The notes: generated by a model not told the origin, from the letters alone. Positions 10,311-27,662 are shown, counted from the stretch's first letter. The stretch is 40,000 bases of DNA from an uncultured delta proteobacterium (GCA_963815115.1 CAWFFN010000005.1:366948-406947); one strand, 5' to 3'. A program made the numbers and translations.

Positions 10311-10680
10311 TACCGACGCTCTGCCTCTCGCTGCACGCTGCCGCGTGGAGCGGTGCGCTGTCAATGGATGGCGTCGAGGCGGTCCTGGGCGATGGGCGGC
10401 CGCAAAAGCGGCGCTTCCAGAAGGCGTTCCGCCCTGGCGTGCAGAGCAGCGGTTCCATTCTCAGGACGAAGCTCCCCTCGAAGGCGAAGACCGGGACAAC
10501 GCCGACTTCGGAGGGTTGCCAGCGGCGCCGGGGAGGACCGAGGTTCAGGCGTTTCGACCTCGTGCGGGAGCTTCCACTCAGAGGCGACGCTGCACGTGTA
10601 CGTGGCGGCGCTGCGGTTCTCCACCGGTGACGTTGGAGCGGCGGACGTGATGTGTCAGGTTCCGGCGCCGCGGACGATCC

Positions 10681-12234
10681 TCAGGTCGCGAGTGCGGGGT
10701 CCAGGGCGTGCCGGCCCGCCGCCCACGGGCTCTCGGCCGCGCCGAGCTCTGGATCCCACATGTCGAGCTTCTGCATGACGGACACGATGTGCTTGTACGT
10801 CACCAGGGCGGAGAACACGGCGTTCAGTCCCGACGGCTTTTCCTTCCACCGGCGCAGGACCCGGAGCGGGATGCGTCGGAACTCCGGTCCCATCGACCCG
10901 AACGCCCGCAGCAGGTGCGTGTAGAACTCGGCGCCGTCGTCCTCGCCGAGCCCGTACACGACCCGACCGGAGTCGGGCCACACCTCGCAGAGCCCCAGCA
11001 CACGCTGGCCGAAATGGGCCGGGTGGTACAGGCGATTGAGCAGCCAGCGCGTGCCGTGGCGTAGCTGGTCGGCGGTCATCAGCTTGGGCACGATGTTGGT
11101 CCCGGAATAGTGGTCGAAGTCGGGACGATCGACGAGCCGACCGTCCGCCCGGAGGCGCGCCTCGAGCGGAGTCCCCGCGGGCGCGTTCAGCATCCCGGTG
11201 CTGCAGATCGGCACGTTGGCGGCCTGCAGGAACTCGAACTGCTCGCGAAACGCGTCGGTGGTGTCGTGGTCGAAGCCGACGATCATCCCCGCCTGGACGC
11301 AGACGCCCCGGGCCTGCAGCTCGTGGATGCTCTCGAGCAGGTCGCGGGCGAGGTTCTGCCGCTTCTTGGCCTCCGCGAGCGCCGCCTTGTTGGGCGACTC
11401 GATGCCGACGAACGCCACGTTCAGGCCCGCCGCGGCGCACAGGTCCACGACCTCGGGATCGCGCACGATGTCGATCGAGAGCTGGGTCGAGAAGATCACC
11501 GGCTCCGCGCGGTCCCCGTTCCAGTCGCGGAGCGCGGTGAGGATCTCCGTCGCCTTCTTGCGGTTGACGGTGAAGTTGTCGTCCGAGAGGAAGATGGAGC
11601 GATACCCGTAGCCGTACAGCGTGTCCGCCTCGGCGAGGATCTGCTCGACCGCCTTGTGGCGGATGCGGCGGCCGAGATACACGATGACGTCGCAGAACTC
11701 GCACTCGAACGGGCATCCGCGGCTCGTCTGGATGACGCCGATCGTGTAGCGGTCGTTGCGCAGGAGATCCATGCGCGGCGGGGGCGAGAGGGCGAAGTCG
11801 ATCTTCTCGGGCTGGGCGTAGTGGTCGCGGTGCCGCCCGGCCCGGAAGTCGTCGAGGAACGCCGGCCAGGTGAGCTCGGCCTCGCCGGTGAAGAGGATGT
11901 CGCAGTAGGGGCGGCAGCGCTCCGGGCTCAGCGAGGCGAACGGACCGCCGATCGCGACCAGCCGCCCGCGCTCGCGGAACATCCGCGCGAGCTCGACCAT
12001 GCGCCGGCTCTGGCTGACGTAGCCGGTGATCCCGACCAGGTCGCACGGCAAGTCCAGGTCCACGGCCTCGACCGTCTCGTCACAGATCACCACCTCGACG
12101 TCCTTCGGCGTCAGCGCCGCCAGCGTCGGCGGCGCGAGGTTCGGGATGTATCCCGGCTTGCCGGTGATGTCGGCCGCTTCCGAGAGGCTCCAGAAGCTCG
12201 CCTGCAGCCCGGGATTCACGAGGTAGACGCGCAC
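10681..12234 (-). CDS. B12-binding-domain radical SAM protein (class B), divergent copy rSAM-1
   Basis: 517 aa. N-terminal Rossmann-like B12 domain (MRVYLVNPG..VGITGY), radical SAM motif SRGCPFECEFC (CxxxCxxC), and a long C-terminal helical extension. Confidence 0.9.
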   Translation of the reverse strand: MRVYLVNPGLQASFWSLSEAADITGKPGYIPNLAPPTLAALTPKDVEVVICDETVEAVDLDLPCDLVGITGYVSQSRRMVELARMFRERGRLVAIGGPFASLSPERCRPYCDILFTGEAELTWPAFLDDFRAGRHRDHYAQPEKIDFALSPPPRMDLLRNDRYTIGVIQTSRGCPFECEFCDVIVYLGRRIRHKAVEQILAEADTLYGYGYRSIFLSDDNFTVNRKKATEILTALRDWNGDRAEPVIFSTQLSIDIVRDPEVVDLCAAAGLNVAFVGIESPNKAALAEAKKRQNLARDLLESIHELQARGVCVQAGMIVGFDHDTTDAFREQFEFLQAANVPICSTGMLNAPAGTPLEARLRADGRLVDRPDFDHYSGTNIVPKLMTADQLRHGTRWLLNRLYHPAHFGQRVLGLCEVWPDSGRVVYGLGEDDGAEFYTHLLRAFGSMGPEFRRIPLRVLRRWKEKPSGLNAVFSALVTYKHIVSVMQKLDMWDPELGAAESPWAAGRHALDPALAT

Positions 12235-12246
12235 GGTGCACCTCCG

Positions 12247-12993
12247 TTACATCGCGAGTCCGCCGTCGACGTGCACGACCGCACCCGTCACGTAGCGGGC
12301 GGCGGGGGAGAGCAGAAACGCCGCCACCGGCGCGACGTCCTCGGGCTCGCCGAAGCGCCGCATGGGAATCAGCTCGGTCGCCTGGCGCTCGTACTCCGGC
12401 TTCAGTCCGGCCGTCATGTCCGTCCGGATGAACCCGAGGGCCAGGGCGTTGACGGTGATGTCGAGCCGCCCGACCTCCTTCGCCAGCGCCTTGGTGAAGC
12501 CGATGACGCCCGCCTTCGACGCCGAGTAGTTCGCCTGACCGGGCATGCCGACGATGCCACTCACCGAGGTCACGTTGAGGATGCGGCCGCTCTTGGCCTT
12601 CATCATGGGCGTGATCACGGCGCGACAGAAGTTGAACACCCCGGTCAGGTTGGTGTCGAGCACGTCCTTCCAGTCGTCGGCCTTCATCATCATGAGGAGC
12701 TTGTCCTTCGTGATGCCCGCGTTGTTCACGAGGGCGTGGATCTCCCCCAGCTCGCTGCGGGCGCGCGCGATCATCTCCCGGACGCGCTCGAGATCGGCCG
12801 AATCCACCTGGGCCGCGAGCGATCGGACGCCCAGGGCGTCGAGTTCGCTCGTCAGCGTCTCGGCGAGGTCGGCGCGGCTGCGATAGGAGAACGCCACGCT
12901 GCACCCTTGCCGGGCGAGCTCCAGGGCGATGGCGCGCCCGATGCCCCGCGTCGCTCCCGTCACGACGGCGACTCTGCCCTCGAACGTGCTCAC
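12247..12993 (-). CDS. fabG: 3-oxoacyl-ACP reductase (SDR)
   Basis: The GTG start at 12993 forms a GTGA overlap with the upstream stop. Motifs: TGATRGIGRAIA, NNAG, YSASKAG, and C-terminal VTGAVVHVDGGLAM. Confidence 0.9.
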   Translation of the reverse strand: MSTFEGRVAVVTGATRGIGRAIALELARQGCSVAFSYRSRADLAETLTSELDALGVRSLAAQVDSADLERVREMIARARSELGEIHALVNNAGITKDKLLMMMKADDWKDVLDTNLTGVFNFCRAVITPMMKAKSGRILNVTSVSGIVGMPGQANYSASKAGVIGFTKALAKEVGRLDITVNALALGFIRTDMTAGLKPEYERQATELIPMRRFGEPEDVAPVAAFLLSPAARYVTGAVVHVDGGLAM

Positions 12994-13745
12994 GAGCTGC
13001 CATTCCCCGAGCGCTCCGCGATCTGCTCGCCGACGAGCGCCGCGAAGGCTTCCGTCTCGCGGCGGAGGCCGTCGGCGCCGCCATCGGTCAGGAAGCATTC
13101 CTTGAGCGCTCTCACCGCCGCCGCGGGCTTCGCGGAGAGGTCGCGGGCCATCTCCCCGGCGGTCGCCAGCACGCGGTCTCGCGGCACGAGCCGGTCGACG
13201 AGCCCCCAGGCCAGCGCCGTCTCGGCCCGGATCATCCGTCCGAGGTACAGCATCTCCTTGGCCCGTCCGACGCCGATGAAGCGGGCGAGGCGCTGGGTCG
13301 CCCCGAGGCCCGGAATGATGCCGTGCTTCAGCTCGGGCATGCTGAAGTACGCCACCTCCGAGGCGACCCGGAGGTCGCACACCAGCGCGAGCTCGAGGCC
13401 CCCGCCGATGGCGACGCCGTTGATGGCGGCGATCAGCGGCTTCGGATAGGCCTCGATGCGCGAGTAGATGCGCTGGAACCTTTCGAACAGCGTCATGCGC
13501 TCCTCGTGTCCGAGGCCCGCCATCTCCTCGCCGAAGAGCTGCTGCAGATCGCCGCCGGTGCAGAACGCGTTGCGGATCCCGCCGGTGAGGATGACCGCAG
13601 CGACGGCAGGGTCGTCCTTCCAGGCCTCCAGCGCCGTGACGATCTCGTCCAGCACCTGGCCGTTGATGGCATTGATCGGCGGTCGCATCAGGGTGACGGT
13701 GCCCACCCCGTCCTCGTGCGCGACCGACAGGTGATGAAATCCCAT
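12990..13745 (-). CDS. Enoyl-CoA hydratase/isomerase (crotonase) family protein, ECH-1
   Basis: ATG 13745 (MGFHHLSVAHEDGVGTVTLMRPP). Motifs FCTGGDL and AAINGVAIGGGLELALVCD. The upstream part of ORF 12990..13964 is junk. Confidence 0.9.
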   Translation of the reverse strand: MGFHHLSVAHEDGVGTVTLMRPPINAINGQVLDEIVTALEAWKDDPAVAAVILTGGIRNAFCTGGDLQQLFGEEMAGLGHEERMTLFERFQRIYSRIEAYPKPLIAAINGVAIGGGLELALVCDLRVASEVAYFSMPELKHGIIPGLGATQRLARFIGVGRAKEMLYLGRMIRAETALAWGLVDRLVPRDRVLATAGEMARDLSAKPAAAVRALKECFLTDGGADGLRRETEAFAALVGEQIAERSGNGSS

Positions 13746-13747
13746 GC

Positions 13748-14968
13748 CTATTCGCTCCCCACGACGAGACACGCCGAGCTGGCCTGCGGATCGAGCGATG
13801 GCACCAGGACGGTGCGCACCGCCCGGGCGAGCGGGCCGGACACGAGGGCCAGCGGCCCGATCTCCGGATCGACCTCCGTCGTGTTGATCGTCGGCGGGAT
13901 CGTGCCCGACTCGAGCGCGACGAGCGCGGCAGCGGTCTGCAGCGCGCCCGACGCCCCCATGCATTCGCCCAGCATCGACTTGACCGCCGTCACCGGGACA
14001 TCGGGTCCGAGGAGCCGTCCGATCGCCGCCCCCTCGACGAAGTCGGCCTCGCGGCTCGAGCTGGCGGATGCGCTGACCAGGTCGACGGACCGGGGCGCAA
14101 CGCCGGCACGCTCGAGCGCCAGGCTCATCACGGCTTTCACGGAGTCCGCCGCGCGCCGTCCGCCGGTGAAGAGCGACCCGTAGCCAGCCACGGTTCCCCG
14201 GATGCGCGCGCCTCGTTTGCGGGCCACGTCCCGGTTCTCGAGGACGAAGAGATAGCAGCCCTCACCGAGGACGAACCCTCTCCGCCGCCGGTCGTAGGGC
14301 ACGCTGAGCCCTGCCGCCTCGCCTCGCGCGAGCCGACCCTCGTCGGCTGCGAGCAGGAAGGCATCGAGGGAGAGCTGCTCCATGCCGCCGGCGACCACGC
14401 GGGTCGCCTGTCCCGAGCGGATCATGCCCGCCGCGGTGCCGAGCGCGTCGGCGCTGGACGCGAATCCCGAGGACACCGTGTTGATGCAGGCCTGGAGCCT
14501 GGACCGCACGGCGGCGAAGTTGGTCGCGGAATTGAGCGCCGCGTCGAACCCCTCCATGGGAAGCAGGTCGGCTGGATCATGAGTCAGTATCTTCTGCGTG
14601 TAGTCGGTGGTCTGAGGAAAGTTGCCGTGCGCGGTCCCGACGATGAGCCCGGTCTCGGCCCGCGTCTCCTCGCCGTCCTCCAGCCCGGCGTCCTGGAGCG
14701 CCTGCTGCACCGCGACGGCCAGAAGCCGCGTCCCGCGCATGACGTACTTGATGCCCTTGCCGCCCAGCCGCTCGTCCGCACGCAGGTCGCGCACCTCGGC
14801 GCCCACCCGTACCGGCGACGCCGAGAGGTCGAGCGTCGTCACGGGACCGATCGCCGAGGCGCCACGGCGAAGATTCGCCGAGAACTCCTCCCAGGCGCAA
14901 CCCAGCGGCGAGACGACGCCCACGCCCGTGATGACGACGTGCAGGGATGTCCTCGCCTCGGCGCTCAT
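13748..14968 (-). CDS. Ketosynthase-like protein lacking the catalytic Cys (CLF/KS-beta-like), partner of KS-1
   Basis: The ATG at 14968 forms an ATGA overlap with the KS-1 stop. It has a thiolase fold (VVITGVGVVSPLG...), but SSGFASSADAL aligns to ACSSGNHAL of KS-1 (Cys to Phe), and both catalytic His motifs are absent. Confidence 0.85.
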   Translation of the reverse strand: MSAEARTSLHVVITGVGVVSPLGCAWEEFSANLRRGASAIGPVTTLDLSASPVRVGAEVRDLRADERLGGKGIKYVMRGTRLLAVAVQQALQDAGLEDGEETRAETGLIVGTAHGNFPQTTDYTQKILTHDPADLLPMEGFDAALNSATNFAAVRSRLQACINTVSSGFASSADALGTAAGMIRSGQATRVVAGGMEQLSLDAFLLAADEGRLARGEAAGLSVPYDRRRRGFVLGEGCYLFVLENRDVARKRGARIRGTVAGYGSLFTGGRRAADSVKAVMSLALERAGVAPRSVDLVSASASSSREADFVEGAAIGRLLGPDVPVTAVKSMLGECMGASGALQTAAALVALESGTIPPTINTTEVDPEIGPLALVSGPLARAVRTVLVPSLDPQASSACLVVGSE

Positions 14969-16143
14969 GCCTTCGTGAAGACGACGACGGCGTTGTTGCC
15001 GCCGAAGGCGAACGAGTTGTTCATCACCGCACGGAGCGCGAGCGGGCGTGCGGCGTTCGGGACGCAGTCGACGGGGCAGTCCGGGTCGGGGGTCTGGTAG
15101 TTGATGGTGGGAGGGACGACTCCGTCCCGCAGCGCCAGGCAGCACACCACGGACTCGATGGCGCTGGCCGCTCCCATGGAATGGCCGATCATCGACTTGA
15201 CCGAGCTCACCGGGAGGCGGCCGGCCCGGTCGCCGAACACGGCGCGCAGCGCCACGGCTTCGGCCCGGTCGTTCGCCGGTGTCCCGGTGCCGTGCGCGCT
15301 CACGTAGTCGATGTCGTCGGGCGCCAGCCCGGCGGCGCGGAGCGCGGCGCGCATCGCCCGGATGGCCCCTGCGCCCGACGGATCGGGCGACGTCACGTGG
15401 AAGCCGTCCGCGCTCAGCCCGTACCCCTTCACCTCGGCGTAGGCCGGCGCTCCCCGCTCGGCGGCGTGCTCGCGCGACTCGAGCACGAGCATCCCCGCGC
15501 CCTCGCCGATCATCAGACCGCGGCGGTTCCGGTCGAACGGCTGGCAGTGCTCGGCGGCCAGAGAACGGAGGTTGTGGAAGTACGTGAACTCCGTCTGCGC
15601 GAAGACGTCGACCCCGCCGACGACCATCGCGTCCACCTCGCCTCGCCGGATGAGATCACACCCGGAGGCGAGGGCATGATTCCCGGAGGAGCACGCGTTC
15701 ACGGACAGGAGATGGGGTCCGCCGGTGCCGAGCCGGTCCGCCAGCGCGCCCAGGATGGTGGAGAGGGGATAGGTGCGGGTGACCGCCGGCGTGAAGCCGT
15801 TCGCCTTGGTTGCCGGGTCGGCGCGCAGCGCCGCCTCGAAGGTCTTCAGATCGCCCCCGAGCGTGCCGACGACCACCCCCACACGCTCCGCGCCCGTGCG
15901 GCCCACGTCGAGCCCGGCGTCCCGGACCGCCTCGCTCGCGGCCGTGCCCGCCAGCTCGTGCGGGGTGGTCTCGAGCGCGAGCTCGCGGATGACGTGGCCC
16001 CGGTGCACCTTGTAGGCCGTCGTGTCGAAGTAGGGGATCTCGCCGGCGCCTTCCCGACCGGCGAGCATCGCCTTCCACGCCGCATCGGTACCGACTCCGA
16101 CGGAGGTGACGAGGCCGACGCCGGTGACGACGACTCCTGACAT
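14965..16143 (-). CDS. Beta-ketoacyl-ACP synthase (FabF-like), KS-1
   Basis: 392 aa. Motifs: VVVTGVGLVTSVG, active-site VNACSSG, SAHGTGTPAND, SVKSMIGHSMGAAS, and FAFGGNNAVVVF. Confidence 0.9.
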   Translation of the reverse strand: MSGVVVTGVGLVTSVGVGTDAAWKAMLAGREGAGEIPYFDTTAYKVHRGHVIRELALETTPHELAGTAASEAVRDAGLDVGRTGAERVGVVVGTLGGDLKTFEAALRADPATKANGFTPAVTRTYPLSTILGALADRLGTGGPHLLSVNACSSGNHALASGCDLIRRGEVDAMVVGGVDVFAQTEFTYFHNLRSLAAEHCQPFDRNRRGLMIGEGAGMLVLESREHAAERGAPAYAEVKGYGLSADGFHVTSPDPSGAGAIRAMRAALRAAGLAPDDIDYVSAHGTGTPANDRAEAVALRAVFGDRAGRLPVSSVKSMIGHSMGAASAIESVVCCLALRDGVVPPTINYQTPDPDCPVDCVPNAARPLALRAVMNNSFAFGGNNAVVVFTKA

Positions 16144-16388
16144 CTAGGAGACCGACCCAAGACGGCGTCTCGGGTCGGATCCGGAGGCGAGCGCAGCGCG
16201 CTCGGTAGCACGCACGACCTGCATGTCGCGGCCGGCAACGCCGGCGCGACACTCTCGGCACGCCCGTGTCCGCCTCGTTTGCCGCGCCAGCTTTGCTGGC
16301 CGCGGCATGGCGGTCGCCCATGCCACCATACGTCTCATGTCCACTTTTCCTCTCCGACCCAAGACGCAGTCCTGGGTCGGCCTTCTAG
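16144..16388. repeat. Non-coding spacer bounded by 35-bp inverted repeats (MITE-like), each arm a hairpin
   Basis: 16144-16178 (CTAGGAGACCGACCCAAGACGGCGTCTCGGGTCGG) matches the reverse complement of 16354-16388 at 30 of 35 positions. Both ends terminate in CTAG. No credible ORF lies inside. Confidence 0.4.
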
Positions 16389-17827
16389 GCGGTGGCGTGC
16401 TCCTGCCGGTAGCGCCACAGCGCGCGGTCGTACTCGCCGGAGTCCCGCAGGTCCTTCGCGTTCTGGATGAGGTGCCGGAAGACCAGCTGCCAGTCGAGGT
16501 TCACGCGAAACGCGAAGTACGCCGCCGCCAGGTTGCCCAGCACCTCGCGAGCGCGGGCGAACCGCCGGCGCAGGACCTCCGTGGTGTAGAGGCGCTCGTA
16601 GAGGTGCTCGAGCCCCGCGATGAAGTCGTCCAGCGGCATGCTCTTCAGCAGGTAGAGGAGGTGATGCGCGGTGCCGTACTGCCAGTCCTGCGGGAAGCGG
16701 TTGCGGAACAGCCGCCCCTCGGCCTGCAGGCGCTCGTAGAAGCGCGTTCCCGGGGCCGGGGTCTCGATCCCGCAGGTCATGATGTCGATGTCGTTGTCGA
16801 GGACGAAGTCGGCGACGCGATCGAACACCTCGGGGCTCTCCGTGTCGGTCCCGAAGATCATCGTGCCCCAGACCGCCAGGCCGTGGTGGTGGATGCGCTC
16901 GATGGCGCGTCGATAGTCGCCCCCCGTGGCCTTCAGGTTGAACTTCTTGTTGAGGAGCTGGAGGGTCGCGGCCTCGAGCGACTCGAATCCGATCAGCATC
17001 CCCACGCTGCCGGACTGCGCCATCCAGTGCAGGACCTCGTCGTCCTCGGCGATGTGGATGGACGTGAAGCCGAACCAGTTCTGGCGGATGCCGCGTTCCG
17101 CCATCTGGCGGTACAGCGACACGGTGCGCTCGTGCGACAGCTTGCCGTGGCCGTAGAAGTTCTCGTCGCTCCAGATCATGCCACGATACTGCCCCTTGAA
17201 CTCCTCGAGCTCGTCGAGCAGGTCGTCGACGGGGCGTTCGCGATATTTCCGGCCCTGGAAGAGCGGGATGAAGCAGAACTCGCAGGTGTACGGGCACCCC
17301 GCCGACGCGATCGCCGCCGTGAAACGGTAGCCGTACTTGCGCCGCAGGAACTCCCGGTCGGGTCGGATGTCCCGGAGGATGGACAGATCGTGCAGCCCGC
17401 CGTCGTAGTGCGGCTGGAGCTCCCCGCGCTCGAAGTCCCGCACCAGCCTGGGCCACGCGGTGAACGCCTCTCGCGTGCAGATCGCATCCGCGAAGGGCCG
17501 CGCCTCCTCCGGGTAGGAGGTGGCGTGCCAGCCGCCGATGGCCACCGGGATCCCCTGCGCCCGGCACGCCGTGGCGATCTGGTAGGCGCGCGGCGCCTGG
17601 TGGCTCATCGCGGTGATCCCCACCAGATCCGCGCCGTCGAACGTGATGCCGGTCCCGTCCGCGGCGAGGGCCTGCTCCTTCATCTCGTCGATGATGTCGA
17701 CCTCCCAGCCCGCGGGCGTGAGCGCCTTCAGGTAGGCGAGGCCGAGCGGCATCTGCGTCAGGACCGAGACGTTCTCCTCGCCGACGTTGCCCGGCGGATG
17801 CGGGCTGATGAGCACCAGGCGCTTCAT
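16385..17827 (-). CDS. B12-binding-domain radical SAM protein, tandem paralogue rSAM-2
   Basis: ATG 17827 (MKRLVLISPHPPGNVGEENVSVLTQMPLGLAY) overlaps the upstream stop by 1 nt (TGATG). Motifs GCPYTCEFC, ENFYGHG and NWFGFTS. The track ORF 16385..19246 is an off-frame extension. Confidence 0.9.
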   Translation of the reverse strand: MKRLVLISPHPPGNVGEENVSVLTQMPLGLAYLKALTPAGWEVDIIDEMKEQALAADGTGITFDGADLVGITAMSHQAPRAYQIATACRAQGIPVAIGGWHATSYPEEARPFADAICTREAFTAWPRLVRDFERGELQPHYDGGLHDLSILRDIRPDREFLRRKYGYRFTAAIASAGCPYTCEFCFIPLFQGRKYRERPVDDLLDELEEFKGQYRGMIWSDENFYGHGKLSHERTVSLYRQMAERGIRQNWFGFTSIHIAEDDEVLHWMAQSGSVGMLIGFESLEAATLQLLNKKFNLKATGGDYRRAIERIHHHGLAVWGTMIFGTDTESPEVFDRVADFVLDNDIDIMTCGIETPAPGTRFYERLQAEGRLFRNRFPQDWQYGTAHHLLYLLKSMPLDDFIAGLEHLYERLYTTEVLRRRFARAREVLGNLAAAYFAFRVNLDWQLVFRHLIQNAKDLRDSGEYDRALWRYRQEHATA

Positions 17828-19368
17828 CAGGCTTGCCCCACCGGCTGCTTGGCATGCACGTTCTTGTAGATCGACATGAGCTTGGCCCGCTGCGGATGGT
17901 TGAAGTCCTCGAAGGCGAGCGGCACCGCGACCTGCGCCGGATTGGCCTCGTGGGGGTACGCACCCGAGTCGTAGAGCTTGTGTAGCTCCATCAGGTTGGC
18001 CTCGAAGACGACCTTCCAGTCGAGGTTGATGCGGTAGGCGAACATCGAGTTCACGAGGTTGCCGGTGGCGGCGTAGGTCTGCTTGAAGCGCTCGCGCAGC
18101 TTCTCCTTGCCGTAGATGTTGTCGTACACGTAGGTGAGCCCCTCGATGAAGCGCTCGAGCGACATGTTCTTCAGCCGATGCACGAGGTGACCGGAGTTGT
18201 AGTAGTACCAGTCGTACGGGAAGTTGGTGCGGAAGATGCGCTGCTCGCTGCTCAGGCGGTCGAAGAGCTCGGTGCGCACCATGGGCGTGTAGATGCCGAA
18301 GGTGCAGACGTCCATTCCGGTCTCCCAGACGGCGTCGACGACCTGCTTGAAGGTGTCTTCCTTGTCGAAGTCGGTTCCGAAGATCACCGAGCTCCACACG
18401 ATCAGCCCGTGCCGGTGGAGGTTGCCGAAGCAGTGCCGGTAGCTGTCGAGGAACGAGGTCGAAGCCTTCTTGGCGATGCCGATGTTGACCGACTTGTGCA
18501 TCTTCTTGAGCGTGTCGTAGTCGAGTGACTCGATGCCCATCAGGATGCCGAGGCAGCCGCTCTTCGCCATGTAGTCGAGCACGACGTCGTCCTGGGTGAC
18601 GTTGAGCGACGTGAAGCCGAACCAGTTCTTCTTGAGATCGCGCTCCGCCCACCCCTTGAAGAGCTTGCGGCAGCGTTCCTGCGAGTCGGGCGTGTAGCCG
18701 TAGAAGTTGTCCTCCGCGAGCATGAGCCCGCGGTAGTCGGTGTGGGCGAGCTCGTTCCAGACGTCCTCCGGCGGGCGCTGGCGGTACTTGCGGCCCTGGA
18801 TGAAGGGGACACAGCAGAAGTCGCACTTGAACGGGCAGCCGCGGGTCGTGATGATCGACGAGTACTTGTAGCGGTACTTGTCGCGCAGCCACTCCCGGTC
18901 GGGGTGGATGTCCCTGAGCTCCTCGAGCGGCGTCGGGCCGCCGTGGTAGGTGGGCTGGAGACGCCCGCCATCGAAGTCGGCGAGCACCTGCGGCCACACC
19001 CGCTCGGCCTCGCCGATGACCACGCTGTTCACGTGGGCGCTCGCCTCCTCCGGGAGAATGGTCGCGTGGGCGCCGCCGGCGACCGTCGGCACGCCCGCCT
19101 TGCGACACGCCTCGGCGATCTCGTAGAGCCGCGGCACCTGGTAGGTCACGGCCGTGATCCCGACGAGGTCGGCATGGCCGAAGGTCAGGTTGCCCTGCGC
19201 GTCGACGGCCCGCTCGAGGGTCTCGTCGATGACGTCGACCTCCCATTCGTCGCGCGGCGTCAGCGCGGCGATGTAGGCGAGGTTGAGCGGCATCTGCACG
19301 ATGACCGAGATGTTCTCCTCGCCGAAGTGCTTCTCGGGATAGGCGTTGATCAGAACGAGTCGCTTCAT
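17827..19368 (-). CDS. B12-binding-domain radical SAM protein, tandem paralogue rSAM-3
   Basis: ATG 19368 is preceded by AAGGGAG. N-terminus MKRLVLINAYPEKHFGEENISVIVQMPLNLAY, with GCPFKCDFC, DNFYGYT and NWFGFTS. Confidence 0.9.
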   Translation of the reverse strand: MKRLVLINAYPEKHFGEENISVIVQMPLNLAYIAALTPRDEWEVDVIDETLERAVDAQGNLTFGHADLVGITAVTYQVPRLYEIAEACRKAGVPTVAGGAHATILPEEASAHVNSVVIGEAERVWPQVLADFDGGRLQPTYHGGPTPLEELRDIHPDREWLRDKYRYKYSSIITTRGCPFKCDFCCVPFIQGRKYRQRPPEDVWNELAHTDYRGLMLAEDNFYGYTPDSQERCRKLFKGWAERDLKKNWFGFTSLNVTQDDVVLDYMAKSGCLGILMGIESLDYDTLKKMHKSVNIGIAKKASTSFLDSYRHCFGNLHRHGLIVWSSVIFGTDFDKEDTFKQVVDAVWETGMDVCTFGIYTPMVRTELFDRLSSEQRIFRTNFPYDWYYYNSGHLVHRLKNMSLERFIEGLTYVYDNIYGKEKLRERFKQTYAATGNLVNSMFAYRINLDWKVVFEANLMELHKLYDSGAYPHEANPAQVAVPLAFEDFNHPQRAKLMSIYKNVHAKQPVGQA

Positions 19369-19379
19369 CGCGTCTCCCT

Positions 19380-20828
19380 TCAGTGCGCCGTGGCGGCGGT
19401 GCTCGCGCTGCCCACGCTCACTCGCTCGGCGGGGTAGGCGCCCGAGTCGTAGAGGCCGTGCAGGTTGCGGAGAATCTGCTCGAACACGCGCTGCCAGTCC
19501 TGGCCGACGCGGTACGCGAACAGCGCGGTGCGCGGGTTGCCGGTCGCCTGGAGCGAGCGTCGGAACCGGGCGCGGAGCGCCTCCTTCGTGTACAGGTGAT
19601 CGTAGACGTAGTGCATGCCCGTGATGAAGTCCTCGAGGGTCATCTTGTCGAGCTTGTACGTCACGTGATCGGTCCCGTAGTGGAACCAGTCGTTGGGGTA
19701 GTTGGTGCGGAAGACGCGGCCCTCGCCGAGAAGGCGCTTGTGCATCGGCGTATTCGGCAGCGGGGTGCTGATGCCGTAGGTGAGCACGTCGAGGGAGTTC
19801 TCGAGAATGTAGTCGACCATGCGACGGAAGCAGTCCTTGTCGTCCCCGTCCGCGCCGAAGATGACCGAGCCCCACACGATCATGCCGTGATCGTGGATGT
19901 TCTTGATCGAGTCGGCCATGCGGTCGACTCCGAGGCGGAGGTTGACGTCCTTCACCATCTTCTTGAGCACGTCCTCGCTGTTCGACTCCAGGCCGATGAG
20001 GAATCCGAAGCAGCCCGATTTCGCCATGGCGTCCAGCATCACCAGGTCCTGGCCGGTGGCGAGGGTCGAGAACCCGAACCAGTCCTTCCACATCTTGCGC
20101 TCGACCATGCCCTGGAAGAGCTGGCGCGCCCGCTCGTTGGCTCGCTTGCTGTAGCCGTAGAAGTTGTCCTCGGCGAGCATCAGGCCCTTGTACTTGGTCG
20201 CATCCATCTCGGCCCAGACGTCCTCCACCGGCCGCTCCCGGAACTGGCGCCCCTGGAACACGGGAACGCTGCAGAACTCGCAGCGGAACGGGCATCCCTT
20301 CGTGGTGACGATCGACGAGTACTTGTAGCCGTACTTCTCGCGGCAGAACTCCCGGTCCGGGTGGACCCGGCCGACGAGCTCGAGGGAAGGCAGCCCGCCG
20401 TCGTAGAGCGGCTGGAGGTCGCCGCGCGCGAAGTCGTCGAGGATCGACCGCCACGTCAGCTCGGCCTCGCCGGTGCACACCGCGTCGGCGTGGCGTTGCG
20501 CCTCTTCGACCATCGCCGAGACGTGAATGCCGCCCATCACCACCTTCATGCCGCGCCGCCGGCATGCGTCCGCGATCTGGTACGCCCGCGGGCTCTGGTA
20601 GGTGAGCGACGTGATGGCGACGAGGTCCGCGTCGAAGATCGGCTCGCCGCGCTCGTCGAGCGCGAGCTCGATGGTCTCGTCGACCAGGTCACGCTCCCAT
20701 TCGTCCTGCGGCGTCAGCGCGGCCAGGTAGGCGAGATTCAGCGGCATCTGCACGATCACGGAGATGCTCTCCTCGCCGTGTCGCTCCGGCGGATGGGGGT
20801 TGACGAACACCACCTTGCGTCGATCCAT
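19380..20828 (-). CDS. B12-binding-domain radical SAM protein, tandem paralogue rSAM-4
   Basis: ATG 20828 is preceded by AGGAGGGAG. N-terminus MDRRKVVFVNPHPPERHGEESISVIVQMPLNLAY, with GCPFRCEFC, DNFYGYS and DWFGFST. Confidence 0.9.
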   Translation of the reverse strand: MDRRKVVFVNPHPPERHGEESISVIVQMPLNLAYLAALTPQDEWERDLVDETIELALDERGEPIFDADLVAITSLTYQSPRAYQIADACRRRGMKVVMGGIHVSAMVEEAQRHADAVCTGEAELTWRSILDDFARGDLQPLYDGGLPSLELVGRVHPDREFCREKYGYKYSSIVTTKGCPFRCEFCSVPVFQGRQFRERPVEDVWAEMDATKYKGLMLAEDNFYGYSKRANERARQLFQGMVERKMWKDWFGFSTLATGQDLVMLDAMAKSGCFGFLIGLESNSEDVLKKMVKDVNLRLGVDRMADSIKNIHDHGMIVWGSVIFGADGDDKDCFRRMVDYILENSLDVLTYGISTPLPNTPMHKRLLGEGRVFRTNYPNDWFHYGTDHVTYKLDKMTLEDFITGMHYVYDHLYTKEALRARFRRSLQATGNPRTALFAYRVGQDWQRVFEQILRNLHGLYDSGAYPAERVSVGSASTAATAH

Positions 20829-20842
20829 GCGACACTCCCTCC

Positions 20843-22318
20843 TTACGCTAGCGCGGTCGTCCCGGCGTTGCCGTGGACTGCTCGCGGCGCCGCCGGCTCC
20901 CGCGCGGCGATCCGGTTCGCCACCCGCCAGCCGGAGGCGACCACCGCACACACACCGGGGCCCGGGATGGTCCAGTGACCGGTGAGGTACAGATTCTCGA
21001 TCGGGGTCTCGTGCGCCAGGCGCCGCATCCCCGACTGCTCGGGAATCACGGCCCAGCCGTAGGGCGCACCACAGAAGTTGCTCGTCCGCTCCGCCCCGGT
21101 CGGGGGATGTGCGACCGTCATCACCTCCACGTGGCGCCGCAGCCCCGGAACGAAGTCCTCGATGCGGTCGAGCACGTCGCGCACCTTGGTCTCCTGCACG
21201 GCACGCCAGTCGCCCGCGGCCTCCTCCTCGGGCGCGAGCGAGGCGACGACGGTCATCGTGTGGTACCCCGGCGGGGCCATCCCGGGCTCGATCTGCGTCG
21301 GTGAAGAGACGTAGAGCCAGGGTCCGCCCAGCTCCTCGGAGAAGAAATAGAAGCCGCGCGCGAGGCGCTCGGGTTGGCAGCGCGCGCTCACCCCGAGGTA
21401 CAGGAGCACGAACGGCGAGCTCGCGCGCAACGTCCGCAGTCGTTGCGCGTACGCCGGGTCCACGGCGCCGTCGAGCAGGCGGAAGAACGTCTGTGCCGGG
21501 TCGATGTTCGAGACCACGGCGCCGGCCGCGATCTCGCGTCCATCGGCGAGCCGGACGCCCGCGGCCCGCGTGCCGTCGAGCAGCACGTCGCGCACGGCCG
21601 TCGAGACCAGCAGGTCGCCTCCGCTGGCGACGAACCTCGCCGCGATGGCGTCGGCGAACGCCTGGGTGCCCCCGCGGGGATAGTAGGCGCCGTCGCGCCA
21701 GTAGTTGACGATCATCTGGCACATCCCGACCGCCGAGAGCTCCTGGGGAGGCGATCCCAGGTAGCCCCACTGCCCCGACAACCCGAGCTTGAGGCGGGGA
21801 TCGTCGAAGAAGGCGTCGAGCATCTCCGCGAACGTCGAGTCCTGGTAGCGGATCAGCGTCGGGCTCTCCCGGCGCTCATCGAGCAGCGCGCGATAGAGCT
21901 TGACGATCTCGGCGAAGAACGCGTCGATGGCGCGACGCTCCCGGGGAAAGCGCTCCGCGAGCAACGCCGCGAAGGCATCCAGCCTCGTCGGAACCGGGAG
22001 CGACCAGGACGGGAAGACCAGCGTGTCCATGGGGTCGAGGCGCACGAAGTCGCACTCGATCCCCAGAGCACGCAGGCAGCTGCCCACGATGCTCAGGCGG
22101 CCGCACCCGCTGATGTGGTGCACGGCGACGTCGAACGTGAATCCCTTCTGCGTGAACGACGAGCAGCAGCCGCCGGGCTGGGCGCTGCGCTCCACGATCA
22201 GCGTCCGCTTGCCCCGCTGCGCGAGCTGCGTGCCGCACACCAGCCCGCCGATACCGCCGCCGACGACGACGGCGTCGTAGTCCCCCCGTACCTCGACTCG
22301 CGCGGTCCGGCCGTCCAT
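20843..22318 (-). CDS. Phytoene-desaturase-family (CrtI-like) FAD-dependent oxidoreductase
   Basis: 491 aa. N-terminal dinucleotide fold DAVVVGGGIGGLVCGTQLAQRGKRTLIVERSAQPGG, YPRGGTQAFADAI, and a C-terminal LYLTGHWTIPGPGV motif typical of the CrtI/amine-oxidase family. Confidence 0.9.
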   Translation of the reverse strand: MDGRTARVEVRGDYDAVVVGGGIGGLVCGTQLAQRGKRTLIVERSAQPGGCCSSFTQKGFTFDVAVHHISGCGRLSIVGSCLRALGIECDFVRLDPMDTLVFPSWSLPVPTRLDAFAALLAERFPRERRAIDAFFAEIVKLYRALLDERRESPTLIRYQDSTFAEMLDAFFDDPRLKLGLSGQWGYLGSPPQELSAVGMCQMIVNYWRDGAYYPRGGTQAFADAIAARFVASGGDLLVSTAVRDVLLDGTRAAGVRLADGREIAAGAVVSNIDPAQTFFRLLDGAVDPAYAQRLRTLRASSPFVLLYLGVSARCQPERLARGFYFFSEELGGPWLYVSSPTQIEPGMAPPGYHTMTVVASLAPEEEAAGDWRAVQETKVRDVLDRIEDFVPGLRRHVEVMTVAHPPTGAERTSNFCGAPYGWAVIPEQSGMRRLAHETPIENLYLTGHWTIPGPGVCAVVASGWRVANRIAAREPAAPRAVHGNAGTTALA

Positions 22319-22322
22319 CGCG

Positions 22323-23549
22323 TCAGCCCGTCGGGCAGGCCGAGAGCAGCAGGGCGGCGCAGTGCCCGGAGTAGGAGGAGGCGGTGACGAGCGCGCGGGT
22401 CACCTCCATGCGCCGCGCCACGTTCGGGACGCAATCGACGGCGCACGCCTCGTCCGCGACCCGATGGTTGATCGTCGGAGGCACCACCTGCTCCGTCAAC
22501 GCCAGCAGCGCCGCCGCGGCTTGGAGTGAGCCCGACGCGTCGAGACACTCCCCGCACATGGACTTGATGGCGCTCACCGGCGGGCACGACGCGTCGCCGT
22601 CGAAGGCGGCGCGCAGGGTGCTGGCCTCGAGCCGGTCTCCCCCGGGGGTGGAATTGGCGCCGCTGAAGACGCACCAGCCGTCCGGGGACGCGGGCGGCGT
22701 GCGCCCGAGCGCAGCGCGGATGACCCGACGGCCGTTCGCCACCGGATCCCCGCCACGCGGCCGGAAGCCGTTCCCGTATCCGGTGACCTCGCCGTAGATC
22801 CGGGCGCACCGCTCACGGGCACGCGACAGCGGCTCGAGGAACAGCAGACAGCTGCCCTCGCCCAGCACGACGCCGTCCCGGCGACGGTCGAACGGGGCGC
22901 ACAGTCCGCTGCCGGAAAGCGCGCCCGTCCCCGCGAAGCCCCGGTAGACGTCTTCGCCGAGACCGAACACGCCCCCCGCCAACATGGCTCCCGCCCGACG
23001 CAGCCGGAGGAAGTCTGTGGCGTACCCGAGCGCGTCGAGGCCGCTCGTCTCGCCCGTGGCGATCGTCGCGTTCGGGCCCGTCACCCCGAGGAGAATGGAG
23101 ACGCGGCTCGCCGGCGCGTTCAGCACCGTGTTGGGAAACTCCATGGGGTTCACGTACGCCGGGCCTTCTCGCAGGGCCTCCGTGTCGAACGCGGCGATGC
23201 TGCCGATGCTCCCGTAGGTCGAGCCCACGGCGATGCCGGTCTGGTCATCCCGCACGGGAGCCTCGCCGCCCTGCAGGACGCCGGCGTCCTCGAGCGCGAG
23301 CTTGGCCGCGCACGCGAGCAGCAACGTGGTCCGATCGAAGTGCCGGATGCCCTTGGTCCCGATGAAGGGCGCCGGCGAGAACTCGGCGATCTCCCCGGCC
23401 AGCCGGCTCCGGCCGTTCCCGGGGTCGAAGAGGGAGAGGGGACGAAGACCGGAGGCACCTGCCGCGAGGCTGCGCCAGAACGCCTCCCGCCCTGCGCCCA
23501 GGGCGGAGACGACCCCAAGACCGGTCACGACGATACGTTCCACGATCAC
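22323..23549 (-). CDS. Ketosynthase-like protein lacking the catalytic Cys (CLF-like), partner of KS-2
   Basis: The GTG at 23549 forms a GTGA overlap with the KS-2 stop. N-terminus is IVVTGLGVVSALG. ATGETSGLDAL aligns to the KS active site (Cys to Glu), and the His motifs are absent (FSGANSTPGGD). Confidence 0.85.
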   Translation of the reverse strand: MIVERIVVTGLGVVSALGAGREAFWRSLAAGASGLRPLSLFDPGNGRSRLAGEIAEFSPAPFIGTKGIRHFDRTTLLLACAAKLALEDAGVLQGGEAPVRDDQTGIAVGSTYGSIGSIAAFDTEALREGPAYVNPMEFPNTVLNAPASRVSILLGVTGPNATIATGETSGLDALGYATDFLRLRRAGAMLAGGVFGLGEDVYRGFAGTGALSGSGLCAPFDRRRDGVVLGEGSCLLFLEPLSRARERCARIYGEVTGYGNGFRPRGGDPVANGRRVIRAALGRTPPASPDGWCVFSGANSTPGGDRLEASTLRAAFDGDASCPPVSAIKSMCGECLDASGSLQAAAALLALTEQVVPPTINHRVADEACAVDCVPNVARRMEVTRALVTASSYSGHCAALLLSACPTG

Positions 23550-24784
23550 CCCTCGAACCGGCGCAGGACCAGGCAGCTGTTGTTCCCCCCGAAGGCGATC
23601 GCGTTGTTGAGCGCGACGGTGAGCGACCGCCTGCGCGCTGCGTTCGGCACGTAGTCGAGATCGCAATCCGGATCGGGCGTCTCGTAGTTCATGGTCGGCG
23701 GTACGACCCCGTGGCGCAGCGCCAGCACCGAGGTGATCGCCTCGATCGCACTCGCCGCGCCCATCGTGTGACCGATCATCGACTTGGTCGAGCTCACGCA
23801 GAGCTCGTAGGCGTGCCGCCCGAAGACCCGCTTGATGGCGCGGGTCTCCACCTTGTCGTTCACGGGCGTGCCCGTGCCGTGGGCGTTGATGTAGTCGACC
23901 TCGGCGGGCGCGATGCGCGCCGACTCGAGCGCCAGCCCGATCGCACGGCTGATGCCGTCCCCCTCCGGGTCCGGCGCCGTCATGTGGTGGCCGTCGGCGC
24001 TGATGGCGTATCCCAGCATCTCCGCGAGAATCGGCGCGCCCCGGGTGAGGGCCCCGTCGAGGGACTCCAGCACGACGATGCCGGCGCCCTCGCCCACCAG
24101 GATGCCGCGCCTCCCGCGATCGAACGGCTGGCACCGCTCCGGCGCCACGGAGCCCAGCCGGGCGAACCCGGTGAACGCCACCCGGGAGAACGGGTCCGTC
24201 CCGCCTGCCAGCATCGCGTCCGCCCTGCCGAATCTGATGGCATCGAAGGCCCAGCCGATGCTGTAGTTCCCCGCCGCGCAGGCGGTGGGAATCATCACGT
24301 TCGGACCCGAGAGGCCGAGCCAGTGCGCGATGTGGGCGGGAATCATGGCGGCGGGATGGTGGCGCAACGTCTGCCACGGGATTGCGTCCTCGCCGTCGGA
24401 GACCCTCGCCTGGTCCGCCTGTTCGAGAATCTGGATCTCGCCGCACGTGGTCCCGACGGACACCCCGACCGTGGCCTCCTCGTTGCCGCCACCGCCGAGC
24501 CCGGCATCGGCAAGGGCCAGGTGCGTCGCGGCCACGGCCAGCTGCGAAGCGCGCCCCATCCCCGAGGGCGGCGGCGCCCCGACGATCCCTTCGAAGTCGA
24601 AGTCGTGGACCTCGCAGCCCTGGTGGACCTTGTAGCGCGAAGTGTCGAAGCGCTCGATCTCCGTCACCCCGGAGGCGCCGGACAGCGCGGCCGGCCAGAA
24701 GCGCTCGCGCCCGATCCCGATGGGGGTGACCATGCCCACACCGGTTATCACCACGCGGCGGGCGCGCTGGCCCCCGTCGGTCAT
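23546..24784 (-). CDS. Beta-ketoacyl-ACP synthase, KS-2
   Basis: 412 aa. Motifs: VVITGVGMVTPIG, active-site PTACAAGN, NAHGTGTPVND, STKSMIGHTMGAAS. Confidence 0.9.
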   Translation of the reverse strand: MTDGGQRARRVVITGVGMVTPIGIGRERFWPAALSGASGVTEIERFDTSRYKVHQGCEVHDFDFEGIVGAPPPSGMGRASQLAVAATHLALADAGLGGGGNEEATVGVSVGTTCGEIQILEQADQARVSDGEDAIPWQTLRHHPAAMIPAHIAHWLGLSGPNVMIPTACAAGNYSIGWAFDAIRFGRADAMLAGGTDPFSRVAFTGFARLGSVAPERCQPFDRGRRGILVGEGAGIVVLESLDGALTRGAPILAEMLGYAISADGHHMTAPDPEGDGISRAIGLALESARIAPAEVDYINAHGTGTPVNDKVETRAIKRVFGRHAYELCVSSTKSMIGHTMGAASAIEAITSVLALRHGVVPPTMNYETPDPDCDLDYVPNAARRRSLTVALNNAIAFGGNNSCLVLRRFEG

Positions 24785-25248
24785 CCTGGTCGATGCTCCC
24801 GGAGCGTATCGAGCCCGCGGCGATCCACCGCCGCGAACGTCAGCTTCGCCCTGGCCACCGGCTCGCCCTCGACCAGCGCCACCCCCCGCACGATGGCGGC
24901 GGTGGAGATGACCTTCTCCGCCACGACGTCGAAGAGCAGCTGATCCCCCGGGGTGACGGGCTTCAGGAACCGCGCCTCGACCGCACCGAGCAGGAAGACC
25001 TTGTCCGCATGTTGCGGCTGGTTACCGGCTCGGAAGAGCAACAGCCCGCATTGGGCGAGGGCTTCGACCATCACGGTGCCCGGCATCAGCGCAAGATCCA
25101 CGAAGTGTCCCGGGAAGAAGTACTCGTTGCCGGTGACGTTCTTGAGGCAACGGATGCGTTTGCCTTCCTCCAGCTCGAGAACGCGGTCCACGAACAGAAA
25201 CGGGTAGCGATGGGGGATCAGGCGCGTGATCTCGTCGAACGAGATCAC
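24781..25248 (-). CDS. fabZ: 3-hydroxyacyl-ACP dehydratase
   Basis: Hallmark IPHRYPFLFVDRV..GNEYFFPGHF..MPGTVMVEALAQ. A GTGA overlap with the ACP stop and an ATGA overlap with the KS-2 start. Confidence 0.9.
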   Translation of the reverse strand: MISFDEITRLIPHRYPFLFVDRVLELEEGKRIRCLKNVTGNEYFFPGHFVDLALMPGTVMVEALAQCGLLLFRAGNQPQHADKVFLLGAVEARFLKPVTPGDQLLFDVVAEKVISTAAIVRGVALVEGEPVARAKLTFAAVDRRGLDTLREHRPG

Positions 25249-25520
25249 AGAGCGGCCTCCAGCTTCCCTTGCTCCCGCAGCATCTCCTTCACGAGCGTGA
25301 TGGCAGCGCTGAGCGTCGTCACATCGACGATGCGTTCCTCCGGCACCTCGATACGATACTTGCGCTCGAGGGTGGCAACGATCTCGAGCGCGAGCAGCGA
25401 GTCGAGCCCGACCTCCTCGAAGAGATGGCTGTCACGCTGCGCCCACAGCTCCTCCTCCGGCTTCTCGGAGACCTCGGCCACGACCTCGGTCACGGCGCGC
25501 TCCACGTTGTCTGCGTACAT
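25245..25520 (-). CDS. Acyl carrier protein, ACP-1
   Basis: ATG 25520 is preceded by GAGGAGG. The product is 91 aa with the phosphopantetheine-site motif EEVGLDSLLALEIV. Confidence 0.85.
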   Translation of the reverse strand: MYADNVERAVTEVVAEVSEKPEEELWAQRDSHLFEEVGLDSLLALEIVATLERKYRIEVPEERIVDVTTLSAAITLVKEMLREQGKLEAAL

Positions 25521-25729
25521 CACCGTGCTTGACCTCCTCAGCCTCTGCCCGCTGATTCGACCTGCGACATGCCCGCAGAGTGCGTCCCTCTCGGAACCCA
25601 CGTGTGGCGTGCGGACCCCGAATGGTCTGTGCGTGTCGCCTTGGAACCGGCCCGTCTCCGTTAACCCGCGATCCACGCATGGTCAAGCAGTTCTCGATTT
25701 TCTGGAACGACCCCAAACTTGGAGTGTCT
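25521..25729 (-). promoter_or_regulatory. Candidate internal promoter/operator region upstream of ACP-1
   Basis: One of the two largest non-coding gaps in the cluster (with 16144-16384). It contains the most AT-rich stretch of the cluster (25680-25740) and sits directly downstream of the TetR gene. A minus-strand TTGACC-N16-TTAACG is the only sigma-70-like match. The call is positional only. Confidence 0.3.
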
Positions 25730-26365: not shown

Positions 26366-26407
26366 TTTCGCCTTCCGTGGTTCTCCGCCCGCGAGCGATC
26401 GCCCGAA

Positions 26408-27652: not shown

Positions 27653-27662
27653 CCGGCTCCTG

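Follow-up and report, generated by a model that had tools for sequence, protein, structure and literature searches.

Three anciently diverged B12-binding radical SAM paralogues at the junction of two anammox-type gene modules in an uncultured delta proteobacterium

Introduction

The biosynthesis of ladderanes has been an unsolved problem for more than 20 years. Cluster I, one of the gene clusters put forward for it in anaerobic ammonium-oxidizing (anammox) bacteria, has been reported as "encountered exclusively" in ladderane producers (PMC10139942), and work on its proteins shows that the dehydratase amxFabZ disfavours chains longer than C6 and that amxFabF2 and amxFabFmut form a heterodimer of the ketosynthase/chain length factor (KS/CLF) kind that prefers C8 (PMC10139942; bioRxiv 10.64898/2026.05.19.726425). 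Anammox bacteria are without a genetic system, and heterologous expression of a putative cluster gave no radical S-adenosylmethionine (SAM) enzyme (rSAM) (PMC10139942). In the present work, we have analysed a stretch of 40,000 nucleotides (hereafter the window) from an uncultured delta proteobacterium (GCA_963815115.1 CAWFFN010000005.1:366948-406947), in which the genes for three B12-binding rSAM proteins, rSAM-A, rSAM-B, and rSAM-C, stand head to tail. Their closest relatives are the rSAM proteins of two anammox-specific putative ladderane clusters, with which the neighbouring genes of the window are also collinear, an affinity that was overlooked in the original prediction for this DNA, made from its sequence alone.

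The genes of Kuenenia stuttgartiensis that are relevant to this comparison were described by Rattray (2009), who reported two operons syntenic with deltaproteobacteria, with Kuste3342/3343 corresponding to DP1853/DP1855 within the kuste3335–3352 cluster, and who also listed an AcpS (kuste2802), a B12 rSAM (kuste2803), and a mutated KS (Kuste2805), which carries Phe163 and Glu333 according to Table 2 of that work. Metagenome surveys have since given antiSMASH "ladderane" calls in Myxococcota and other phyla with no further analysis, and the literature that we searched holds no account of a non-anammox locus that joins both anammox-specific clusters with three rSAM paralogues. We regard the locus as a new variant of a kind known from anammox bacteria, with a chemistry that is proposed here from sequence.

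Organization of the rSAM array

The genes of the cluster are all located on the minus strand. rSAM-A (482 aa) is encoded at positions 19380–20828, rSAM-B (513 aa) at 17827–19368, and rSAM-C (480 aa) at 16385–17827; each of the three genes begins with ATG and has a GC content at third codon positions (GC3) of 0.94–0.96, in a window of about 70% GC. The gene for a phytoene-dehydrogenase-like flavoprotein (PDH; 20843–22318) ends 14 nt ahead of rSAM-A, 11 nt separate rSAM-A from rSAM-B, and rSAM-B and rSAM-C overlap by 1 nt, a tight spacing that fits one operon and co-transcription of these genes. The array is the junction of two modules, one ending in rSAM-A and the other starting with rSAM-C, with rSAM-B between them, and the three rSAM genes are adjacent because the two modules have been joined in this lineage. 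In order of transcription the locus reads module 3, a TetR-family regulator, module 1 (ACP1, FabZ, KS1, CLF1, PDH, rSAM-A), rSAM-B, and module 2 (rSAM-C, a 241-bp gap, KS2, CLF2, ECH, SDR, rSAM-1), where ACP denotes acyl carrier protein, ECH a protein of the enoyl-CoA hydratase/isomerase family, and SDR a short-chain dehydrogenase/reductase. The array had been described as following a CrtI-like oxidase and preceding a KS/CLF pair, and this placement is borne out by PDH upstream and by KS2 and the triad-less CLF2 downstream. Inspection of active sites shows that each of the three KS/CLF pairs of the locus consists of one partner with an intact Cys-His-His triad and another without it.

Module 1 and anammox Cluster I

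When rSAM-A was searched against 5.8 billion proteins, its nearest named relatives (55–62% identity) came almost only from anammox bacteria (viz. Kuenenia, Brocadia, Scalindua, Anammoxibacter, Tripitaka, and Hypogeohydataceae). The best match lies in a locus of K. stuttgartiensis with the order ACP-FabZ-KS-KS-amine oxidase-rSAM, which is Cluster I (kuste3603–3608), and the six-gene block ACP-FabZ-KS-inactive KS-PDH-rSAM of the window is collinear with it. The block consists of ACP1, a dedicated carrier protein of the amxACP type with a PF00550 domain and a DSL motif (25245–25523; 49% identity to its Kuenenia counterpart), a FabZ-like dehydratase of the amxFabZ type (24781–25248; 51%), the active ketosynthase KS1 of the amxFabF2 type with an intact Cys-His-His triad (23546–24784; 58%), CLF1, a KS homologue of the amxFabFmut type that lacks the catalytic triad (22323–23528; 46%), the CrtI-like PDH with its Amino_oxidase domain (PF01593; 44%), which scores 170 bits on the crtI_fam model against a cut-off of 238, and rSAM-A itself (62%). 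To the same Kuenenia rSAM, rSAM-B and rSAM-C are 55% and 46% identical, respectively.

The resemblance extends to individual residues. In CLF1 the catalytic Cys163 is replaced by Glu, His298 is lost, and His333 is replaced by Glu, and the protein carries the GECLDASG motif common to amxFabFmut. The tunnel residue of FabZ, which is Ile in amxFabZ and Gly in canonical FabZ, is Leu in the window, and the EKVIS patch is hydrophobic as it is in amxFabZ (criteria from PMC10139942). The Cluster I rSAM (kuste3608 type) has the same length and domains as rSAM-A and the same place at the end of the block after PDH; by clade and gene context rSAM-A belongs with it, and rSAM-B and rSAM-C fall outside this clade. 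The window differs from anammox Cluster I, with its single rSAM gene, in having three in succession, followed by a second module, and in lying in a non-anammox genome of 70% GC, so that the confinement of Cluster I to anammox bacteria does not hold here. Elsewhere the family of the three proteins is almost confined to anammox bacteria, where it occurs in putative ladderane-lipid clusters.

Module 2 and the second anammox cluster

A search with rSAM-C retrieved a separate set of anammox proteins at 53–60% identity. In Scalindua and in anammox metagenome-assembled genomes (MAGs) the loci of this C-type have the order AcpS-rSAM-KS-KS-(OYE/FadH-like reductase)-ECH-SDR, and rSAM-C is 56–59% identical to those of their rSAM proteins that directly precede a KS/CLF pair. 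The remaining genes of module 2 follow the same pattern (loci compared are designated by L numbers). KS2 (14965–16143), which has an intact Cys-His-His triad, shares 50–53% identity with the KS downstream of the C-type rSAM in L083 and L084; CLF2 (13748–14965; start uncertain, with the open frame reaching 15145) is 39–44% identical to the second KS of these loci; ECH (12990–13706; PF00378; start uncertain, up to 13964) shows 41–43% identity to theirs; and the SDR, a FabG-like ketoreductase (12247–12993; PF13561/PF00106), is 57% identical to that of the Scalindua locus L083.

CLF2 has Phe at the position of Cys163 and Glu at that of His333, and its anammox counterpart likewise has Phe in place of the catalytic Cys. 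The context of the kuste2803 type (viz. rSAM, KS, an inactive KS with Phe163, ECH, and SDR), with residues compared against Rattray's Table 2, is thus found around rSAM-C, which we take as the probable counterpart of the rSAM of this second cluster. Between the second anammox cluster (Scalindua L083 and anammox MAGs L084–L086) and the window the gene order C-KS2-CLF2-ECH-SDR is the same, but the window has no OYE/FadH-like reductase and no AcpS directly upstream of rSAM-C, where rSAM-B is found instead; AcpS is present in L083–L087 and, further downstream, in L089. In the window rSAM-C overlaps rSAM-B and lies 241 bp before KS2, and the corresponding distance in anammox loci is 12 nt (L085), 109 nt (L084), or about 306 nt (Scalindua L083). 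One anammox MAG carries both clusters on a single contig about 120 kb apart (L016 and L084), whereas in the window they are fused.

Taken gene by gene, rSAM-A and rSAM-C are very probably orthologous, together with their neighbours, to the genes of the two anammox clusters.

Molecular characteristics of the rSAM proteins

rSAM-A, rSAM-B, and rSAM-C each contain a B12-binding domain (PF02310; 42–49 bits against a cut-off of 32.1), a Radical_SAM domain (PF04055; 51–67 bits), and a weak match to DUF4070, and with a B12-type Rossmann domain and a CxxxCxxC core all three are class-B radical SAM proteins. BLASTP identities are 53% for A and B, and 47% for both A and C and B and C. The description of three intact, homologous class-B proteins arranged head to tail is therefore upheld: CxxxCxxC is intact in all of them, and every motif block that had been listed is present in the alignment (viz. 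GEExxSVxxQMPLxLAYxxALTP, GCP(F/Y)xC(E/D)FC, QGR(K/Q)(Y/F)R(E/Q)RP, (E/D)NFYG, (D/N)WFGF, IFG(A/T)D, and DSG(A/E)Y), with GCP(F/Y)xC(E/D)FC invariant in 16 of 16 family members. Comparison of the A, B, and C groups gave 101 shared invariant columns and 9 fixed group-specific differences, some adjoining the cluster motif (position 177) and others in the E/D-NFYG block; these are too few for a prediction of the substrate pocket.

When an AlphaFold (AF2) model of rSAM-A (pLDDT 86.7) was compared with solved structures it matched those of class B, with AprD4 in first place and MgmA, CysS, OxsB, TsrM, and TokK after it, and Foldseek comparisons with characterised class-B enzymes gave a probability of 1.0 and TM-scores of 0.58–0.68 at sequence identities of 14–19%. 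The characterised enzymes of this class (viz. TokK, CysS, TsrM, MgmA, OxsB, BchE, HpnJ/HpnR, PhpK, and AprD4) share with the trio the N-terminal Rossmann domain of the B12 type and the CxxxCxxC barrel; CysS and TokK use pantetheinylated substrates, but no enzyme among them is active on fatty-acyl chains bound to ACP in the setting of a KS/CLF system. AprD4 is a non-methylating dehydratase which has the B12-type domain without using cobalamin, so the domain by itself is no proof of cobalamin use. As a means of dividing methylases from non-methylases, comparison of folds and sequences fails, since AprD4, MgmA, CysS, OxsB, TsrM, and TokK all match at similar levels.

We have also scored the proteins against curated NCBIfam models for class-B families (viz. 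BchE, HpnJ, HpnR, PhpK, MgmA/TIGR04014, AprD4, ApyD, KedN5, TsrM type, and TIGR04072). None of these models reaches its cut-off (best scores 50–76 bits against cut-offs of 251–775), and no curated family claims the proteins, nor do the Pfam matches assign them to a characterised class-B family; a placement within a characterised family, which had been named as grounds for rejecting the prediction, was not found. TIGR04072 (rSAM_ladder_B12) is a B12 rSAM lipid biosynthesis family named by NCBI whose short name contains "ladder", but its cut-off is 360, and A, B, C, and rSAM-1, which score 51–73 bits on it, are not members.

Phylogeny and conservation of the array

In neighbour-joining trees based on simple distances (200 bootstraps), the family of the trio, including all anammox Cluster I rSAM proteins, is monophyletic with a bootstrap of 100 and has a long stem from rSAM-1, to which the branch (also at bootstrap 100) measures 1.1 substitutions per site. 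Within the family, rSAM-A joins the anammox Cluster I proteins (bootstrap 72–77). rSAM-B forms a clade of its own with its orthologues in L004, L005, and L007 (99–100), which is joined to stand-alone "B-like" genes of deep-branching Brocadiales at a bootstrap of 24–48 only, and rSAM-C groups with orthologues from Myxococcales and Blastocatellia (96–99). The union of this last group with the anammox C-type proteins has a bootstrap of 66, each subclade being at 99–100. The term tandem paralogues suggests a local duplication, which the trees contradict: rSAM-A is nearer to its Kuenenia counterpart (62%) than to rSAM-B (53%) or rSAM-C (47%) and the three fall in separate clades, so that the trio consists of ancient paralogues set side by side, rSAM-B being the third of them.

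The A-B-C order is repeated in a Myxococcales MAG (L007; 63–68% identity), in the related MAGs L004 and L005, and in two metagenome contigs (L088 and L089), and the diverged non-anammox lineages that carry the trio number four or more. The full Cluster I core with exactly one rSAM gene was seen in 53 of 79 species-representative loci, the tandem trio in 3, and two tandem copies in 2; the genome scan used two peptide patterns biased to the A- and B-types, and copy numbers elsewhere are thus lower bounds. The genomes closest to that of the host, a high-GC soil bacterium, carry the titles "uncultured delta proteobacterium" (MAGs with the MFD label of Microflora Danica samples), Myxococcales, or Blastocatellia.

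Compared with the L004 orthologues (92–95% identical), the dN/dS ratios are 0.08 for rSAM-A, 0.10 for rSAM-B, and 0.09 for rSAM-C, the lowest of the locus except for the small ACP (0.05), which indicates strong purifying selection on all three. Pseudogenisation in relatives, which had been named as a further ground for rejecting the prediction, was considered and is ruled out. Only L005 has broken copies, several of its genes being split in the gene calls, and its single-base indels are spread across the locus, including the PDH and KS genes, a pattern as from long-read assembly errors.

Several further arrangements of these genes were observed. L089 additionally carries a muconolactone-isomerase-like gene, a second ACP, FabH, and AcpS, and the same muconolactone-isomerase-like gene follows the SDR in Scalindua L083. 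Deep-branching MAGs of the Brocadiales type with 46–55% GC (L068, L072, L074, L077, L078, L079, and L082; L071) have a further "B-like" paralogue that stands by itself, away from any lipid genes. In one of them, CSMAG_693, genes of the A-type, the B-like, and the C-type kinds occur together, of which the C-type gene lies by KS, CLF, and SDR on the strand opposite to PDH-rSAM-A. In a Blastocatellia (acidobacterial) MAG (L006/L022) there is a complete Cluster I with one rSAM gene and, about 18 kb off on the same contig, a C-type and a further A-type rSAM gene, both located after KS-CLF.

Proposed function and alternative explanations

We propose that rSAM-A, rSAM-B, and rSAM-C are non-redundant, anciently diverged members of one small B12 rSAM family that form C–C bonds on ACP-bound short unsaturated chains, a proposal to which we give about an even chance. 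It draws on the constant association of the family with a short-tunnel FabZ, KS/CLF pairs, and a desaturase-like flavoprotein, on the published preference of the anammox counterparts for C6–C8 chains, and on the near limitation of the family to organisms with ring-fused lipids; the best fold match of the modelled rSAM-A, the non-methylating AprD4, also favours it. Three anciently split paralogues that are individually conserved (dN/dS about 0.09) and have orthologues elsewhere agree with the original prediction, in which one acyl chain would undergo several radical modifications.

In the proposed mechanism, each enzyme would bind a [4Fe-4S] cluster via CxxxCxxC and split SAM to give a 5'-deoxyadenosyl radical, which would take a hydrogen from a short unsaturated acyl chain on the dedicated ACP. 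The substrate radical might then close a ring through a new C–C bond, with cobalamin helping in the handling of the radical or of electrons. rSAM-A would act together with ACP1, the short-tunnel FabZ, the KS1/CLF1 heterodimer, and PDH, and rSAM-C with KS2/CLF2, ECH, and SDR, and the paralogues would divide the stages or positions among themselves as the chain is lengthened by the KS/CLF pairs. The parts of this proposal differ in strength. What the data show is how the genes are arranged, their orthology and collinearity with the anammox clusters, and the purifying selection on them. Binding of the substrate to ACP is fairly probable; that rings are formed in preference to methyl groups being added is speculative, and we hold it as a tentative possibility; and ladderane-like products are likewise speculative.

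A number of observations weigh against the proposal. Most characterised class-B rSAM enzymes are methylases, and of these MgmA, CysS, TsrM, and TokK likewise rank high in the fold and profile comparisons. The joins on which the argument depends have bootstraps of 66–77 in neighbour-joining trees, and at identities of only 44–62% to the anammox proteins the product may differ. The trio is found without PDH between CLF1 and rSAM-A in L007 (6700–18690) and L089 (6904–21440). The assignment of the rSAM-C locus to the kuste2802–2805 type is drawn from the Scalindua and anammox-MAG loci and from Rattray's description, and the taxon names used here are record titles, that of the host coming only from the record titles of its relatives. 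For anammox bacteria, too, only circumstantial evidence ties these clusters to ladderanes.

The alternative that survives best is that A, B, and C are cobalamin-dependent C-methyltransferases acting, perhaps iteratively, at different unactivated carbons of an ACP-bound chain, with a multiply branched lipid or a cyclopropane precursor, and not a ring-fused lipid, as the product. The class-B architecture agrees with this, as do the presence of PhpK, HpnR, and MgmA (TIGR04014) among the best profile matches and of MgmA, CysS, TsrM, and TokK among the fold matches, and one published ladderane proposal invokes methyl-derived cyclopropanes. Those profile scores are, however, only 50–76 bits against cut-offs of 360–650, the best fold match, AprD4, is no methylase, and the ties to a short-chain FabZ, KS/CLF pairs, and a desaturase-like flavoprotein suggest unsaturated short intermediates and not the methylation of a finished chain. 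We consider methylation by the trio rather unlikely.

A more far-reaching possibility is that non-anammox soil bacteria (Myxococcota-like, Blastocatellia, and others) make ladderanes or ladderane-like cyclobutane lipids from one supercluster in which A, B, and C form the rings, and that the cluster marks a lineage that exchanged genes with an anammox ancestor. We think this unlikely; if it were true, it would end the exclusivity of ladderanes as a biomarker and would define a minimal transferable set of ladderane genes.

The locus might also encode a highly reducing type II polyketide or polyene pathway of the ishigamide, aryl-polyene, or cinnamoyl type that has no tie to ladderanes, with the rSAM proteins performing dehydrogenation, isomerisation, dehydration, or other tailoring. 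Three KS/CLF pairs, two ACPs, a dehydratase, a ketoreductase, ECH, and the CrtI-like oxidase would suit such a pathway, and antiSMASH "ladderane" calls in non-anammox MAGs have been published without lipid evidence. Like the window, the ishigamide (Iga11/12) and cispentacin (AmcE/F/G) systems combine a dedicated ACP and a FabZ-like enzyme with a KS whose heterodimer partner is inactive; the ishigamide KS, Iga11, is the closest structural homologue of amxFabF2, and the KS and FabZ of the window score on the cispentacin models, below their cut-offs (255 against 325 for AmcF, and 105 against 140 for AmcE). On the other side, each core gene is best matched by the syntenic gene of the anammox clusters, and in the 79 species-representative loci the rSAM family always occurs with anammox-type neighbours or alone. 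To our knowledge, no described type II polyketide pathway uses the rSAM family of the trio, and we know of no B12 radical SAM enzymes in the ishigamide and cispentacin pathways. On balance, a pathway of this kind is decidedly unlikely.

Finally, redundant local duplicates, or an assembly or binning artefact in which anammox DNA was stitched into another genome, are very improbable explanations, for although the genes are adjacent and collinear and those of the relative L005 are split, rSAM-A is closer to Kuenenia than to B or C, the three clades are separate, each gene has a dN/dS of about 0.09, the indels of L005 are locus-wide, the window proteins are placed on a 1.8 Mb (1,801,076-bp) NCBI/ENA contig, and contamination by anammox DNA is excluded by the GC3 of 0.94–0.96 (in a window of 70% GC against 37–45% in most anammox loci) together with the recurrence of the same trio in five other contigs.

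The locus bears on the study of ladderanes. It provides a natural experiment that sharpens the list of core components to ACP, FabZ, two KS/CLF pairs, three rSAM paralogues, ECH, and SDR, with PDH dispensable in some lineages, and it makes high-GC sequence versions of each rSAM newly available for expression hosts. The view that Cluster I is found in ladderane producers only is directly challenged, with consequences for the use of ladderanes and "ladderane" biosynthetic gene clusters as anammox markers. A product other than a ladderane would weaken the argument for ladderane synthesis by these clusters in anammox bacteria.

The fourth rSAM gene and other features of the locus

The last gene of the operon, rSAM-1 (517 aa; 10681–12234), encodes a further B12-binding rSAM with an intact CxxxCxxC, and its PF02310 score of 31.5 bits is just under the cut-off. 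It had been described as a much more divergent fourth copy. The divergence is confirmed by BLASTP identities of 29–32% to each of A, B, and C, but rSAM-1 is not a copy: it lies outside the family of the trio and belongs to a broad, widespread rSAM family of the DUF4070 type, with relatives of about 50% identity in Binatia, Chloroflexota, Ktedonobacterales, and Pirellulales. L004, L005, and L070 have also kept it as the final gene of the operon. In the last of these, a locus with a Spirochaetales label and 69% GC, two rSAM-1-family copies stand in tandem (1115–4575, minus strand) and adjoin a Cluster I with two A-type rSAM genes, KS2/CLF2, SDR, a MIPS-like gene, and a ligase.

Upstream of module 1 are the TetR-family regulator (25730–26365; PF00440), which is conserved in L004, and module 3 (26408–34131), also on the minus strand. 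By Pfam matches, module 3 encodes a protein resembling myo-inositol-1-phosphate synthase (MIPS-like), an unknown protein of 116 aa, a PaaK-like ligase, CLF3 (29895–31118), in which the triad is missing, ACP2, a 3-hydroxyacyl-CoA dehydrogenase, an ECH, and KS3 (26408–27652), in which the triad is intact. The ligase scores 198 bits on the DVU_1553-family model, the cut-off of which is 300. The stretch from KS3 to CLF3 is kept in L004, whose locus stops at CLF3, and in L070 a MIPS-like gene and a ligase likewise adjoin the cluster. Module 3 is probably part of the same pathway as modules 1 and 2. It may also parallel the kuste3335–3352 cluster of Rattray, which has a "phenylacetyl-CoA ligase".

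The GC content dips to 64% at 18001–20000, which covers rSAM-B and rSAM-A, compared with about 70% elsewhere. Recent horizontal transfer as the source of this dip is ruled out by a GC3 of 0.94–0.95, the drop being in codon positions 1 and 2, and the dip is an effect of amino acid composition. The gap of 241 bp between rSAM-C and KS2 (16144–16384) may hold an internal promoter, although a consensus scan showed none there. A promoter and terminator scan of positions 10000–27000 gave no signal above chance, and an Rfam scan found no cobalamin riboswitch and no other RNA.

Among the flanking genes, those at 34224–36865 run on the plus strand, divergent from the cluster, and specify an ABC ATPase, a lipid-binding protein of the MlaC family, and an ABC-2 permease, which may be a lipid-trafficking system for the product of the cluster; a VacJ/MlaA-like protein (kuste3352) is present in a lipid cluster of Kuenenia (Rattray, 2009). 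Further along, on the minus strand, lie genes for a GDSL/SGNH-like protein (36886–38010) and, before it in the direction of transcription, a membrane O-acyltransferase of the MBOAT family (38101–39282). A pairing of this kind is typical for systems of polymer or lipid O-acylation.

At the other end of the window, a 583-aa ABC transporter (2771–4522, plus strand) has ABC_membrane_2 and SbmA/BacA-like regions, with no nucleotide-binding domain among its Pfam matches. Relatives of the SbmA/BacA-like type import cobalamin in mycobacteria, and import of cobalamin by this transporter, if it occurs, could matter to the four nearby enzymes with B12 domains. It is followed by a 422-aa open reading frame with no family match (4856–6124, plus strand). 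Downstream of rSAM-1, on the minus strand, are genes for an alpha/beta-hydrolase of 645 aa (8427–10364) and for a protein of 425 aa (7134–8411) that weakly matches a copper-monooxygenase C-terminal family, a position that is occupied in L005 by a PemK/MazE toxin-antitoxin pair instead.

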